From: Candidatus Latescibacterota bacterium
Lineage (GTDB): Bacteria; Latescibacterota; UBA2968; UBA8231
DNA: 64,000 nt
Direction: 5' to 3'
Assembly: GCA_965206595.1 (NCBI GenBank)
Contig: OZ242214.1
Coordinates: forward strand, 2,336,001-2,400,000
A program made the position numbers and the translations under genes. This document shows, one piece after another, positions 1 through 4,987 of this stretch; position 1 is the stretch's first letter; each line of letters opens with the position of its first letter. The notes under the pieces are model-generated. The model was not told the DNA's origin and ran no database searches. It saw nothing but the letters and a program-made list of their open reading frames with translations.

Positions 1-59
1 ACGGCGTAGATTCGGAAACCATCGAACAGGCAATGGCCGACCTGAAGCAGCCTGCCTGA
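1..59 (+). CDS. 3' end of an upstream gene (partial)
   Basis: Open frame GVDSETIEQAMADLKQPA* ending TGA 57-59; product cannot be identified. Confidence 0.35.
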   Translation, partial: GVDSETIEQAMADLKQPA

Positions 60-155: not shown

Positions 156-1895
156 TTACCGTTGCCTTCCGCGGCCCTTGCCGGCACCCTTGCCCCGGGC
201 GGCTTTCCGCCGGCCGGCTTCTTTCCCGGCCGCCGCGGATTTCCCCGGGCTTGCCGACTCCGGGGCAGCCAGCTCGAAATTGATGCGGCGCCTCTCGAGA
301 TCCACCTCGGCCAGGCACACCGTCAGGCGGTCGCCGAGGGTATAGGCTGCCCGGGTGCGGCGGCCGACCAGGGCCAGCGCCTCCTCCCATACCTCGAAGT
401 AGTCGCCGCTGCCCTCGCCGAGAGAGCGGACCGGCACCAGGCCTTCGGCGAACAGCCCCTCGGGACGGACGAACAGTCCCGCGGCATGAACGCCGGTCAC
501 CCGCGCCGGCATCACCTCCCCCAGACGCCTGCGGGCGACGAGGCAGGCCGCGGCATGGACGATCTCCCGCTCGGCCTTGATTGCCCGCCGCTCGGACTCC
601 GAAGAGCTCTCCGCCGCGGCTTCGAGCCGGCGCAGGTTGGGCTTCTTCAGCCAGTGATTCCAGAGCGCGCGGTGGACGAGCAGGTCGGGGTAGCGGCGAA
701 TCGGCGAGGTGAAGTGGGCGTAGGCTTCCGAGGCCAGTCCGAAGTGGGGGTCGACCTCGGCCGAGTAGAAGGCCTGGCTCAGGGAGCGCAGCAGCAGCAT
801 CTGCCCGCTCTCGGACTGGCGCGACTGCTTGAGCCTGCCGAGAAGCCCGGCAACCGCTTTCGGGCTGTTCTCCTTGCCGGTCCTCACCGGATGCCCGAAT
901 CGCTTTGCCCAGGCGGCCATCAGCTGCCACTTCTCCCGGGGCGGCGGCGGATGCACGCGGTAGAGGCCCTCGAGTCCGCGGTCGAGCAGGTGCTCGGCGA
1001 CCGATTCGTTGGCGGCGACCATCAGGTCCTCGATGACCTGGTGAGCCGGGAGCGGGTTGCGGGCAACGACATTGACGGGATTGCCCCCCTTGTCGAACAG
1101 GACCTCCGGCTCCGGGATCTCGAGATCGAGGGAGCCTTTCTCGAAGCGCCTGCGGCGCAGCAGCCGCGAGGCCTCGATACAATCCTGGACAACTGCCGCT
1201 ACCTGTCCGGGAAGGGCGTCCGGGGCCCCGTCGATCTGCGCCTGTACCTGGGTGTAGGTGAGGCGGGCGGCGCTGCGAATCAGGGAGGGGTAGATCTCGA
1301 TGCTGCCGCGCCCGCCGTCGCCGTCGACCACCATCTCGCAGGTCACGGTCAGCCGCGATTCCCCGGGAAGCAGCGAGCACAGCCCGTTCGACAGCCTTTC
1401 CGGCAGCATCGGCAGAACGCGCCCAAGAAGGTAGACGCTGGTGCCGCGAAGCAGCGCCTCGCGGTCGAGGGGGCTGCGCGCCTTCACATACCAGGCGACG
1501 TCGGCAATCGACACCCATACCCGGTAGGCGTCTCCCTGCTTCTCGGCCGACACGGCATCGTCGAAGTCCCGGGCGTCCTCCCCGTCGATGGTGACGTGGG
1601 TGCGCGGGCGCAGGTCGCGGCGTCTTCCCCGGGCCAGCGCTTTTTCCGGGTCGACCTCGGGGAATGCGCCGGCCTGTGCCAGCGCTTCCTCCGGGAAGGG
1701 GCCGGGCAGCCCGAGGCCGTCGATGGCTTCGCGGAGATAGGCGGCGTCGGAGGCAGGTTTCGCCGAGGCCTGCCTGCGACCGGTTGACCGCATTTCCCGT
1801 TTGCCCGGGGTCCTGGCGGGTTTGCTGACCTTCTTGCGGCGCGGCACACTGCGCCGCGGGGTTTTGCCACCTTTTCCTTTCCGGGATCCGGCCAT
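156..1895 (-). CDS. rnr: RNase R/RNase II-family exoribonuclease (RNB + S1, basic tails)
   Basis: Catalytic TIDGEDARDFDDA, HFTSPIRRYPDL, C-terminal S1 and K/R-rich tail; ATG 1895 chosen as start. Confidence 0.88.
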   Translation of the reverse strand: MAGSRKGKGGKTPRRSVPRRKKVSKPARTPGKREMRSTGRRQASAKPASDAAYLREAIDGLGLPGPFPEEALAQAGAFPEVDPEKALARGRRRDLRPRTHVTIDGEDARDFDDAVSAEKQGDAYRVWVSIADVAWYVKARSPLDREALLRGTSVYLLGRVLPMLPERLSNGLCSLLPGESRLTVTCEMVVDGDGGRGSIEIYPSLIRSAARLTYTQVQAQIDGAPDALPGQVAAVVQDCIEASRLLRRRRFEKGSLDLEIPEPEVLFDKGGNPVNVVARNPLPAHQVIEDLMVAANESVAEHLLDRGLEGLYRVHPPPPREKWQLMAAWAKRFGHPVRTGKENSPKAVAGLLGRLKQSRQSESGQMLLLRSLSQAFYSAEVDPHFGLASEAYAHFTSPIRRYPDLLVHRALWNHWLKKPNLRRLEAAAESSSESERRAIKAEREIVHAAACLVARRRLGEVMPARVTGVHAAGLFVRPEGLFAEGLVPVRSLGEGSGDYFEVWEEALALVGRRTRAAYTLGDRLTVCLAEVDLERRRINFELAAPESASPGKSAAAGKEAGRRKAARGKGAGKGRGRQR

Positions 1896-2140
1896 GTGCT
1901 CAATCAGGAATGTGCCTGAGGGCGGTCGCTGCCGGCACACTCAGTGGCCACCGGTTTGCAATGACGCACAGAGGCCGGGGGCGAGCGAAGGGGCAGCGAT
2001 CTCAGCTTTGGATGTTGGAAGATGACATGTGATCGAGTTGTCTGCACATGGCGGGAGTCAGGAGATCCAAGCAGTCCAAAACTACGAGCCAAGACCCTTG
2101 CTCGTCCCTGCATCGAATCGTTTCTTCACCCTTCGAGCTC

Positions 2141-2253
2141 GGGAGAGAGCCCCCAAGTCCGCGAAAGGGCCAAGCCCATCTCCCTTTGTCCAGGTTTGTT
2201 CGACCCCCTTTTGCCTGCTCGACGCGGACGCCAGGCGCATGAAAGGGGTATCG
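2141..2253 (+). promoter_or_regulatory. Putative structured 5' leader RNA (two hairpins with complementary loops, SD sequestered)
   Basis: GGGAGA 2141-46/TCTCCC 2179-84; CCCCTTT 2205-11/AAAGGGG 2242-48; GCCTG 2213-17/CAGGC 2232-36; loop sequences GTCCGCG 2157-63 and CGCGGAC 2223-29 are exact complements. Confidence 0.55.
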
Positions 2254-2254
2254 T

Positions 2255-3010
2255 ATGTCCTCTCAATCTTTCCTCCCCCCGCGTCCCAATCTCGAACAGC
2301 TCAAGAACCAGGCCAAGAGCCTCCGAAAAGCGCACAAAGCCGGAGACGCAGGGACCATTCCGCGGCTGCGGCGCGGTATCTCCCACCTTGCCGAGGCCTC
2401 CGACTCGGAGATCCTGGACGCCAGATTCTCCCTGCTCGACGCCCAGCTCGTGATCGCACGGGAGCAGGGATACAGAAACTGGCAGGAGCTTGAAGCGGCA
2501 ATTCAAGAGGCGACGAGACCCCGTGCAGGGGAAGCGTCCATAACCCTGGCCATCGGAGATATCCGCAAGTACAGCAATCCACTTGACGATGGTCGAGAGT
2601 TCGAGGGGTACCTCGTCCTGCTGGAAGAGGAAGACGGCGAGCGGCTGCTGCCGATCATCATCGATGAAGAGGCAACCGTGTCTCTTGTCAAAGGTCTCAG
2701 GGGGATCCGCTTCCCTCGTCCCCTTTCCCACGACCTCACAACCGCCCTGATGCAGAGTATGCAGGCAAAGCCGGTCGAGCTGCGTATATCGGATTATCGA
2801 GAGTGGGTGTTCTACGCCACGCTGCTCGTCGAAAACGACGATGGTTCCCAGGAAATCGACTGCCGTCCGAGCGACGGCATGTGCATCGCGGTTCGCGGAG
2901 GGGCACCCGTCGTCATCAGCGAGCAGCTGATGGACAGGATAGGAAAAAAGAAACAAGAGCCCCTGGACGGAAGCGGGATAGACGCCCTCGCAGCCAAACT
3001 GGGCGGCTGA
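2255..3010 (+). CDS. Fusion of an N-terminal 'LPxRPNLEQLKxQAK...AQLVIARExG' helical domain and a bifunctional nuclease (DUF151/BFN) domain
   Basis: BFN motifs LLPIII, RPLSHDL, VFYATL, IDCRPSD; N-terminal ~85 aa resemble the module often found ahead of bacterial ankyrin proteins. Confidence 0.8.
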   Translation: MSSQSFLPPRPNLEQLKNQAKSLRKAHKAGDAGTIPRLRRGISHLAEASDSEILDARFSLLDAQLVIAREQGYRNWQELEAAIQEATRPRAGEASITLAIGDIRKYSNPLDDGREFEGYLVLLEEEDGERLLPIIIDEEATVSLVKGLRGIRFPRPLSHDLTTALMQSMQAKPVELRISDYREWVFYATLLVENDDGSQEIDCRPSDGMCIAVRGGAPVVISEQLMDRIGKKKQEPLDGSGIDALAAKLGG

Positions 3011-3065
3011 ACCAGGCCCCTGCCCGCCGAACAGGGGCGGCTCTCCGACGGGTGAACCCGCGCCC

Positions 3066-3095
3066 TTGACATTGTTCGTGAGCAAAAGGTACTCT
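3066..3095 (+). promoter_or_regulatory. sigma70-type promoter for the ABC-F leader
   Basis: TTGACA 3066-71, 18-nt spacer, TACTCT 3090-95. Confidence 0.55.
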
Positions 3096-3105
3096 CGGCG
3101 GCAGA

Positions 3106-3240
3106 ATGAAAGACGCGATCAGGCACTACTTGAACGAGGCAGACCGAATTGCCTTCGAGACAAGCCGGTCCGCAGCGTATTACCGGCCCCGAGGGGGATA
3201 TCCATGCCCGGTTCGGAATAGGGATCGTCTGCCGCCGTAA
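3106..3240 (+). CDS. Putative 44-aa leader peptide (MKDAIRHYLNEADRIAFETSRSAAYYRPRGGYPCPVRNRDRLPP*)
   Basis: ATG 10 nt after the -10 box; ends CCG CCG TAA 32 nt before a terminator; not in the ORF track. Confidence 0.45.
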   Translation: MKDAIRHYLNEADRIAFETSRSAAYYRPRGGYPCPVRNRDRLPP

Positions 3241-3272: not shown

Positions 3273-3310
3273 AGGCCGTGGGGGAACTCCTCCGCGGCCT
3301 TTTTCATTTT
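3273..3310 (+). terminator. Intrinsic terminator/attenuator upstream of the ABC-F start
   Basis: Stem AGGCCGTGGGGG/CCTCCGCGGCCT followed by TTTTCATTTT; 18 nt before ATG 3329. Confidence 0.7.
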
Positions 3311-3328
3311 GGATCGGATGACGAAAAC

Positions 3329-4987
3329 ATGACAGTCCTAGATGTAAACAATGTCTGCAAGCGCTTCGATATCGAGCTGTTGCTGGATGGGGTGAGCTTC
3401 AAGCTGAACCGGGGTGAGAAGGTCGGTCTGATCGGGGGGAACGGGTGCGGGAAGACGACGCTGCTGAAGATGATCGCCGGCATCGAAGATCCTTCTTCCG
3501 GAGTCATCACCAGACCGGGGGGAAGCCGTGTCGGGTACCTGGCGCAGGAGCCGGCGTACGACGGGCGAACGGTGCGCGAGGAGCTGCTCGAGGCCTTCTC
3601 CGAGATTTCCGGGACATCGCGGCAGCTGAAGTTGCTGGAACGGCGCCTGGAATCCGCACCGGCCGACGAGGATGCCGTGCTGGCGGAATACAGCCGCGTC
3701 TCTACCCGGTTGGAGCAGCTCGGGGGCTACAACTTCGAGCACAAGGTCGTACCTCCTCGATCGCGTCGTCGGTCGCGTCCTCGAAATCGAGAACGGGAGG
3801 GTTGCCGAATACAAGGGGAACTACTCGGCCTACCGCGTGGAAAAGCTCAGGGAATCGCTCAAACAGAAGGCGGCCTTCGACGACCAGCAGAAGGAAATCC
3901 GCCGGCTCGAGGCGATGATAAAGAGATTCGCCCTGTGGGCGAAGATGACGGAAGACATCCGGCACGCCAGGCAGGCGCGGAGCCGGCAGAAAATGCTCGG
4001 TCGCATGGAAAGGATCGGACGGCCGAACATCGAGGGGGAAAGGATTCAACCCCACCTCGGGGCAGCGGAGCGGGCGGGGAACATCGCCCTGGAGCTGCGG
4101 GGGTATTCGAGGGCGTTTGGTGAAAAGGTGCTGTTCGATGCGGTCGACCTGCACCTGTCGTCGGGCGAACGGGTCGGGCTGCTCGGTCCCAACGGTTCGG
4201 GGAAATCGACGATTTTCCGCGACATCGTCGAATGCGGGTCCTGGGAAAATCCCGTCATCCGGATCGGACCGCGGATCGAGGTAGGGTACTACTCTCAGGA
4301 GCACGAAACCCTGAACCCCTCCAATTCGCTGGTCGAGGAGATCAGGGAGGCGGCGCCGATGACGGAGGACCAGGCCTTTCACGTCCTGCTGAAATTCCTG
4401 TTCCGCCGCGAGGATATTCATCGCCCTGTCTCGACCCTCAGCGGCGGCGAAAAGAGCCGCATCCAGCTGGCCAGGCTGAAAGTGTCGGACGTCAACCTCC
4501 TGCTGCTCGACGAGCCGACCAATCACCTCGACATCTACTCGCGCGAGCAGGTGGAGGAGGCCCTCGAGGAGTTCGACGGCACCATCCTGGCGATTTCGCA
4601 CGACCGCTATTTCCTCGACCGCATCGTCGACCGCATCGTGGAAGTGCGGAATCCGACGCTGGTGGAATACGCGGGAAGCTTCTCGGACTTCTGGGCGAAA
4701 AGGAGAAGGAGTCCGGAGGCGCCGCGGCAAAAGGTCCGCAGAGGAAAGGTTTCCGGGGCGGGAAAGAAGGTGGCGCCCCGGACGGAAACCCGGCCATCGA
4801 GTGCCCCGCCACTGAAATCGAGCAGAAGATCGACAGCCTCGAGACGCACAGACTCGAGCTGGAAGAGGAGATCGTCCAGGCGTACCAGAACCGCAACTAC
4901 GACAGGGGAGAAAAACTGAGCCGGGACTTGCAGCGCCTGGAAAAGGAGACCGAGCGGCTCTACTCCGAGTGGGAAGCGGCTTCCTGA
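3329..4987 (+). pseudogene. ABC-F family ribosome-associated ATPase with C-terminal coiled-coil domain; internal deletion and frameshifts
   Basis: Walker A GGNGCGKT; at ~3749 jumps from ...NFEHKV to YLLDRVV in another frame, so the NBD1 signature and Walker B are missing; NBD2 intact (GPNGSGKS, LSGGE, LLLLDEPTNHLD); C-terminal domain (...ERLYSEWEAAS*) in another frame after ~4780. Confidence 0.8.

Follow-up and report, generated by a model that had tools for sequence, protein, structure and literature searches.

The 64,000-nucleotide stretch analysed here (the window: positions 2,336,001 to 2,400,000 of contig OZ242214.1 in assembly GCA_965206595.1, Candidatus Latescibacterota bacterium) carries near its left end a gene for a 251-residue protein that joins an N-terminal helical domain (the N-domain) to a bifunctional nuclease domain, and this report concerns the RNA leader that ends at the start codon of that gene. 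An earlier note, made from the letters alone, had proposed that two hairpins joined through their loops bury the Shine–Dalgarno (SD) sequence of the gene, and had read them as a cis-regulatory RNA possibly bound by the N-domain of the protein itself. The strings that it named are all present in the window, with the ATG at 2255, and the coding sequence and these strings are as follows.

2255–3010, + strand: coding sequence, 251 amino acids (aa), N-terminal helical part followed by the BFN nuclease domain
2255–2518, + strand: N-terminal helical domain, residues 1–88, LPxxPxLxxLKKQAK ... DAQxVIAREYGFxSW, supported by alignment A5 and by classification with a hidden Markov model (HMM)
2615–2947, + strand: BFN_dom (PF02577, bifunctional nuclease domain), residues 121–231, E = 4.6e-28, 97.7 bits against a cut-off of 27
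2141–2146 and 2179–2184, + strand: GGGAGA and TCTCCC, outer stem of hairpin 1
2149–2152 and 2167–2170, + strand: GCCC and GGGC, inner stem of hairpin 1 as first read
2157–2163, + strand: GTCCGCG, loop sequence of hairpin 1
2205–2211 and 2242–2248, + strand: CCCCTTT and AAAGGGG, outer stem of hairpin 2
2213–2217 and 2232–2236, + strand: GCCTG and CAGGC, inner stem of hairpin 2
2223–2229, + strand: CGCGGAC, loop sequence of hairpin 2

Judged on the window sequence alone, the claim that these helices look non-random fails. The minimum free energy (MFE) of 2141–2257 is −37.8 kcal/mol against a mean of −37.8 ± 3.46 kcal/mol for 200 dinucleotide shuffles (z = 0.00), 103 of the 200 shuffles fold as well or better, and the minus strand of the leader gives z = −0.35. 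Inverted repeats are also common here, with 11 pairs of at least 7 nucleotides (nt) within the 401 nt from 1900 to 2300. The z-score and the repeat count favour chance complementarity without function, an explanation that all comparative results described below refute and that we regard as vanishingly improbable. It is comparison with other genomes that establishes the helices as non-random.

Fold and covariation of the leader

Pairs were counted on three alignments, among them A6, which comprises 102 rows aligned by R3, a covariance model built solely from copies found in other phyla. The columns of the two pseudoknot helices, PKa and PKb, were not fitted to pairing, because neither helix is part of any covariance model. 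The elements of the fold that emerges, with the flanking initiation signals, are listed below in window coordinates.

2098–2126, + strand: candidate promoter, TTGCTC 2098–2103, 17-nt spacer, TTTCTT 2121–2126; a weak match, with a predicted start at about 2131–2136
2137–2150, + strand: P0 hairpin, GCTC 2137–2140 with GAGC 2147–2150; the 5′ strand of PKa lies in its loop, GGGAGA
2143–2146 with 2179–2182, + strand: PKa, GAGA with UCUC, the 3′ strand lying within a conserved CCA-YCU segment
2157–2162 with 2224–2229, + strand: PKb, the loop–loop helix, GUCCGC with GCGGAC in the P3 loop, supported by covariation
2167–2177, + strand: mini-hairpin GGGC-CAA-GCCC (2167–2170 with 2174–2177), 98.8–99.3% paired
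2185–2203, + strand: variable linker from the 5′ to the 3′ sub-domain; neither its length nor its sequence is conserved in A3, A4 or A6
2205–2211 with 2242–2248, + strand: P4, pyrimidine-rich anti-SD strand CCCCUUU with the SD, 96.4% paired in A6
2213–2236, + strand: P3 hairpin, GCCUG 2213–2217 with CAGGC 2232–2236, 98.8% paired in A6
2242–2248, + strand: SD region AAAGGGG, the 3′ strand of P4, ending 6 nt before the ATG

Across A6, 92.6% of 3209 cells are paired, compared with 83.9 ± 0.3% in shuffles and 41–59% when the partner strand is slid, and changes on both sides occur at 27 of the 32 pairs. None of 500 shuffles reaches any of five measures, controls that overstate significance because the rows are related through genomes and paralogues. 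The 6-bp core of the loop–loop helix pairs in 98.5% of cells, and five of its six pairs have changed on both sides: UA is replaced by CG in 5 rows, CG by UA in 8 rows at one pair and 3 at another, and GC by AU in 2 and 1. The consensus GUCCGC/GCGGAC is found in 67 rows, and seven other fully complementary versions, including GUUCGC/GCGAAC, GCUCGC/GCGAGC and GCCUCC/GGAGGC, are found in 16; a further 9 rows carry one wobble and 7 carry one mismatch. Complementarity is thus kept by compensatory change, as expected of an intramolecular loop–loop interaction. The 7-bp pairing of the earlier note stands in this 6-bp core and falls at its seventh pair, through G2163, which is particular to the window copy and whose position is unpaired in 51 of the 95 scored rows; the calculated duplex energy goes from −9.6 kcal/mol with 6 bp to −12.0 kcal/mol with 7 bp. 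Alignment A4 is uninformative on PKb covariation because the search pattern behind it required a PKb strand, which is invariant there.

As a separate observation, the PKb-mismatched copies adjoin frameshifted or truncated genes in 4 of 7 cases against 17 of 94 for other copies (Fisher p = 0.033, with rows that are non-independent); the four are rows L108, L143, L170 and L190 of A3.

The SD-burying hairpin 2 is borne out. Its two stems, here P4 and P3, are 96–99% paired across the family and, like the loop–loop helix, show compensatory changes; P4 also appears in the MFE fold of the window and contains many U·G pairs across the family. We take the sense RNA to be the folding strand because these U·G pairs would be C·A on the complementary strand. 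Hairpin 1 is borne out in part. The inner 4 bp of its GGGAGA/TCTCCC stem covary and correspond to PKa, which is 90.3% paired in A6, one pair there being AU in 57 rows, GC in 26 and CG in 3; in A3 its four pairs are AU 60/GC 25/CG 4, GC 96, GC 88/AU 5 and GC 34/AU 25/CG 9. PKa can be extended to 2141/2184 in the window, and family-wide the outer two GGGAGA/TCTCCC pairs are mostly unpaired. The inner GCCC/GGGC stem is unsupported and clashes with P0 and the mini-hairpin, both of which are supported in its place. The inner two pairs of the mini-hairpin show 22–32 both-side changes. P0 is 77.5% paired in A6 with both-side changes at all five pairs, and an alignment-free permutation test finds 4.39 of 5 pairs where the null is 3.97 ± 0.043 (maximum 4.11 in 1000 permutations); in the unguided alignment A4 it is only 60.3% paired. 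An automated attempt with MAFFT and RNAalifold on 16 copies recovered neither P0 nor either pseudoknot and offered a doubtful GGG/CCC stem, which we set aside. The covariation shows that a double pseudoknot is conserved, in which the SD is locked in P4 and the hairpin within P4 is docked to the 5′ sub-domain. The element is almost certainly a real structured, cis-acting RNA, and its conservation in the family supports, on comparative sequence grounds, the earlier reading of it as cis-regulatory.

Its position relative to transcription and translation signals is equally regular. In every copy inspected the start codon lies 124–136 nt after the equivalent of window position 2130, and the SD forms the 3′ strand of P4. 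Among the matches listed in other phyla, 17 of 47 copies carry a TTGnnn-16..18-TAnnnT site that ends 25–29 nt before the G of GUCCGC, that is, 5–9 nt before P0; four control windows further upstream gave 1, 0, 0 and 0 such sites and shuffles a mean of 0.26 with a maximum of 3. Strict sigma-70 scans found no promoter in the window itself, where the weak candidate aligns with TTGAAA-17-TATCTT of the orthologue in a related genome (G016), and a scan of the window found no T-run terminator on the + strand. The promoter-like sites just upstream lead us to infer, from consensus, that the leader starts at the 5′ end of the mRNA; it probably begins at the transcription start or shortly behind it and extends to the start codon. 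A start downstream of the hairpins, which the earlier note had said would speak against it, is nowhere indicated by this argument. Contigs of runs X2, X5 and X6 span the whole stretch and are uninformative on the start, end or expression of the leader. In the same three runs, short pieces of contigs match only window positions 2276–2324 (the LPPRPNLEQLK codons) before continuing into unlike sequence, so that paralogous or foreign N-domain genes resemble this stretch at the DNA level.

The abutting promoter-like site, together with the inverted repeat formed by GTCCGC and GCGGAC, could also be read as a signal in the DNA itself, with inverted repeats making up an operator or promoter. What is kept across copies is complementarity and not sequence, and the frequent U·G pairs can form in the sense strand alone. 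The element has a fixed orientation and stands at a fixed distance from the start codon, and a spacer of about 60 nt, variable in length, separates the half-sites. On these grounds a DNA signal is very improbable.

Family spread and coupling to the N-domain

The leader is better conserved than its surroundings. A full-length orthologue of the window gene is present in only 2 of 40 relatives, G001 (88% identity) and G016 (53%), and in G016 the leader is 82% identical, with about 125 nt before the ATG nearly unchanged between flanks that do not align. BLAST further detects leader copies of 71–91% identity in other genera, before other genes. Covariance model R1, built from 16 copies, finds the leader in 49 of the 76 family genomes, as many as 16 times in one of them; three strong copies stand in the genome of the window itself (E = 2.3e-27, 2.4e-14 and 6.5e-14, these and our other covariance-model E-values being rough, from a short calibration). 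Model R2, built from 102 aligned matches, extends this to 71 of the 132 genomes of the window's class, with 48 of 75 in group f1, 1 of 3 in f3, 17 of 22 in f4 and 4 of 31 in f2. Beyond the class, a 17-base pattern was scanned over one genome per species and gave at least 120 stretches, of which 80 loci were taken on to R2; 54 of these match at E ≤ 0.01, and among the matches listed 49 of the 54 cover the whole model. The other 26 we regard as chance matches, because chance predicts them for a pattern of 17 bases.

Among the matches listed, carriers include Acidobacteriota (Bryobacteraceae, Vicinamibacterales, Terriglobia, Blastocatellia and Thermoanaerobaculia), Actinomycetota (Streptomyces, Nocardiopsis, Pseudonocardia and Solirubrobacterales), Gemmatimonadota, Verrucomicrobiota, Pirellulaceae, Alphaproteobacteria, Burkholderia and Candidatus Limnocylindrales; Chloroflexota and Proteobacteria are among the phyla represented. 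R3, built solely from the copies in other phyla, recovers all 101 class copies and one partial copy, and the two sets are therefore one family. Two further loci are recorded for their settings. On the mobilizable (MOBP) plasmid pMSC49b of Methylosinus sp. C49, a leader (57.1 bits) and a 555-aa N-domain ‘hypothetical protein’ (L337, 15757–17424) adjoin a gene for a CDC48-family AAA ATPase; and in two unrelated genomes a tRNA gene lies about 250–340 nt upstream of the leader (L231, 86–159, Opitutaceae; L276, 102–175, Acidobacteriota).

The earlier note could assign no Rfam family, and covariance-model searches bear this out. Searched over 1500–3200 at E ≤ 10 with the 4227 models of Rfam 15, including ZTP, guanidine-II, SAM-II, preQ1, c-di-GMP and ribozymes, the window gives no + strand match overlapping 2137–2257, and 15 diverse leader copies searched at E ≤ 1 give just two unrelated tRNAs and one noise match. 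Nor did word searches, or term look-ups in the main texts of PMC5737381, PMC11109978 and PMC8632094, return a description of the motif. The family is thus widely distributed and apparently uncatalogued, with an unnamed prior listing in survey supplements possible. Our best reading, drawn from sequence comparison, is that window positions 2137–2257 represent a single member of a widespread and uncatalogued family of 5′ leader RNAs of 135–150 nt.

What follows the leader is nearly always an N-domain gene. Classified with an HMM of the domain, 80 of the 101 class copies precede an intact N-domain open reading frame (ORF) at the aligned start and 12 more precede one in an offset or broken frame; the other nine comprise a 337-aa ORF, two FliG_C-only genes and six degraded loci. 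In other phyla an N-domain ORF stands behind the leader in 46 of 49 copies among the matches listed. Conservation and covariation upstream of homologous N-domain genes, the lack of which the earlier note had named as its refutation, are therefore strong, and its portable module of RNA plus N-domain is supported as an association. The reverse association also holds for the most part: of 34 listed N-domain matches, 27 adjoin a leader, 2 have one a gene upstream and 1 has a partial leader. Of the 132 class genomes, 67 have both leader and domain and 53 have neither (the 34-gene tally and this genome table were compiled by hand from tool tables). Copy numbers track as well, with leaders and domains per genome of 16 and 18, 12 and 12, 11 and 11, and 10 and 10. 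The window's genome has four N-domain loci with a leader at three; at the fourth (G000:C1, about 1408600–1409200, + strand) the leader and first codons are lost and an IS630-like transposase gene ends immediately upstream. The same genome also encodes a 108-aa paralogue that consists of the N-domain only (G000:C1, about 5347371, − strand).

Several leaders whose first gene has no N-domain still belong to units that contain one. The next gene after three of the four leaders that precede a small FliG_C-only gene encodes two tandem N-domains, and behind the 337-aa gene comes an N-domain gene that has a leader of its own; in most exceptions to the pairing an N-domain gene is still part of the same unit. 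At L104, L150 and L167 (G006:C111, G088:C86 and G021:C61) a leader, a 64–96-aa FliG_C/MgtE_N-like gene and a tandem-N-domain gene follow one another, which suggests a conserved two-gene unit.

The N-domain itself spans about 85 aa, with the consensus LPxxPxLxxLKKQAKxLL ... DAQxVxAREYGFxSW and with Q64 and W76 invariant in 95 sequences. It is mildly basic (median isoelectric point 9.4, K or R at two positions in 98% of sequences), and an AlphaFold2 model has five helices with a predicted local distance difference test (pLDDT) score of 83.2. Annotated records label its genes hypothetical protein, and the ESM Atlas returns only ‘hypothetical protein’ clusters (0.80–0.81). In Pfam the sole match, to the opening portion of PF20066, scores 19.8 bits and falls short of the 23.7-bit cut-off; NCBIfam gives noise only and PADLOC nothing for the domain. 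A likeness of its C-terminal half to SAP/HeH motifs was supported by no search. The modules fused behind it are diverse: in 89 ORFs the C-terminal partners are Ank (19), FliG_C (18), FliM (7), Clp_N (5), sigma-54-type AAA+ (4), BFN (3), APH (2) and FliG_N (1), with no family in 30. These genes point to no single metabolite or pathway, and the N-domain is the only element that all 89 share. In the sigma-54-type fusions (L102, L111, L156 and L158, about 340 aa) it occupies the place that the CARF sensor has in RtcR-type regulators, where PADLOC matches to RtcR/PspF cover the AAA+ part only.

Candidate mechanism and effector

Since the leader hides the SD, it is probably a new gene-control element, and we consider it likely, from sequence comparison, that it acts through SD sequestration. 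In the 5′ sub-domain of the fold that covariation shows, the P0 loop pairs with the segment after the mini-hairpin to form the H-type pseudoknot PKa; in the 3′ sub-domain, after the variable linker, P3 is nested in P4, which pairs the pyrimidine-rich strand with the SD. The 6 bp of PKb dock the P3 loop GCGGAC onto the single-stranded GUCCGC of the 5′ sub-domain. The docked fold may keep the ribosome-binding site shut and so set downstream translation, with a trans-acting factor shifting the equilibrium between docked and open states. For that factor we tentatively favour the 85-aa N-domain, whose coding sequence directly follows almost every copy of the leader, because it alone is shared by the controlled units of all phyla; we place the N-domain protein as effector, and with it the explanation as a whole, at somewhat under an even chance. 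Feedback control of this kind would travel with the N-domain whatever C-terminal module is fused to it.

By analogy, the leader would work most like autoregulatory protein-binding leaders or pseudoknot riboswitches. Autoregulatory leaders bound by their own product include those of ribosomal proteins (rpsO/S15 of E. coli and the pseudoknot operators of L20) and the thrS operator. Shared with them are a pseudoknotted 5′ leader over the ribosome-binding region, its place directly before, and in cis to, the gene of the candidate binder, and the joint inheritance of RNA and gene. Here, unlike in those systems, the candidate binder is an uncharacterised 85-aa domain that is fused to a wide range of unrelated C-terminal modules and can have as many as 18 paralogues in one genome. 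A covariance-model search of the window's genome revealed no other cellular RNA for the leader to mimic; AAGUCCG may resemble the P4 sequence of RNase P, and the models match at no other locus there.

Several observations weigh against the N-domain as binder, or against regulation by the leader in general, beside the flat folding statistic of the window copy and the relatedness of the aligned rows given above. Sequence and structure searches found no recognisable RNA-binding fold or homologue for the domain: the best match in a PDB profile search is a designed protein at E = 0.011, and Foldseek with the model returns nothing at E ≤ 0.001, the best VIA-align Z being 4.0. Some leaders precede genes without the domain, namely the 337-aa ORF in genus g14 and the 96-aa FliG_C-only genes; 4 of the 34 listed N-domain matches have no leader, and 12 of the 132 class genomes are discordant, 4 with the leader only and 8 with the domain only. 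The only RNA run, X1 (share 0.04), yields one 159-nt contig that lies within the coding sequence at 2392–2550, outside the leader. Co-inheritance of a leader with the first domain behind it would give the same association, and a complex double pseudoknot with invariant unpaired bases resembles metabolite aptamers.

That resemblance makes an orphan small-molecule or ion riboswitch the main and a serious rival. A ligand at the double-pseudoknot junction would stabilise or release the PKb-docked, SD-sequestered state, and the N-domain proteins would be its regulon. The layout is aptamer-like: a pseudoknot bridges two sub-domains that a variable linker joins, and unpaired nucleotides are highly conserved; the structure covaries, and P4 would serve as an expression platform overlapping the SD. 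Many copies per genome, spread across phyla, and leaders whose first gene has no N-domain fit such a switch too. The controlled genes, however, have no metabolic or transport theme and share one domain of unknown function as their common denominator, no Rfam riboswitch model matches, and no result suggests a ligand. We hold a riboswitch to be unlikely, though a possibility to be taken seriously.

Known riboswitches resemble the leader in part. The ZTP riboswitch (pfl motif, RF01750) likewise has two sub-domains, a variable linker, a long-range pseudoknot and a 3′ expression platform, but its model does not match, and conserved nucleotides and gene context differ. Guanidine-II (mini-ykkC) also has two hairpin elements with pairing loops, the second near the SD; its hairpins are small, have ACGR tetraloops and kiss through 2 bp, whereas the leader has a 6-bp helix in a larger fold and no Rfam match. 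The H-type pseudoknot riboswitches SAM-II and preQ1-II use a pseudoknot to occlude the ribosome-binding site, but the leader is larger, has two pseudoknots, places the SD in the separate helix P4 and matches neither model.

An element that needs no ligand, such as a thermometer, a device tuning mRNA stability or translation, or a target of a small RNA or global RNA-binding protein, could likewise have been inherited along with the N-domain. In P4 many weak U·G pairs hold the SD to a U-rich strand, as in fourU and ROSE thermometers, and leader and domain would co-duplicate in any case. A thermometer, however, needs neither a double pseudoknot nor invariant unpaired bases; the conserved tertiary contacts and unpaired bases seen here are not known from thermometers, and the two conserved pseudoknot helices set the leader apart from a simple SD-masking hairpin of the fourU/ROSE type. 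The structure is, moreover, kept by compensatory change over at least seven phyla while protein identity drops to 30–47%. Binding of a CsrA-type protein would depend on a GGA in the P0 loop; by eye this is not conserved, many copies having GGGGCGCC there without GGA, and we rejected this candidate. Ligand-independent action as a whole is quite unlikely, clearly more so than a riboswitch.

Autoregulation by the N-domain remains the reading that we prefer, and its tight coupling of RNA and domain yields a testable hypothesis, namely that the domain binds the leader and shuts translation. A stronger form, in which leader and N-domain make up a self-contained mobile autoregulatory cassette and the domain is a new RNA-binding fold recognising its own and its paralogues' leaders, is possible but somewhat more doubtful. 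If it is true, fused nuclease, ankyrin, FliG/FliM-like, AAA+, Clp_N and kinase modules would inherit the same feedback in at least seven phyla. If instead a small molecule is sensed, the leader would be a new orphan riboswitch, and its regulon of FliG/FliM-like, AAA+, ankyrin, Clp_N and nuclease fusions would point to an unexplored signalling pathway. The leader would also offer a first functional handle on a very common bacterial domain of unknown function and, if undescribed as the searches suggest, would be a large cross-phylum class of structured leaders with a well-defined fold and hundreds of natural variants.

The genes that flank the locus have features of their own. Divergent from the leader, 159–1895 (− strand) is the gene for an RNase II/R-type exoribonuclease whose RNB domain (PF00773) matches at E = 8.4e-101 and whose N terminus is rich in Lys and Arg, so that an RNase adjoins the nuclease-fusion gene. 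Downstream, an ABC-F-type ATPase appears split over the overlapping frames 3278–4120 (+ strand; ABC_tran) and 3672–4916 (+ strand; ABC_tran_Xtn and ABC_tran), which suggests a frameshift or an assembly error near 3700.

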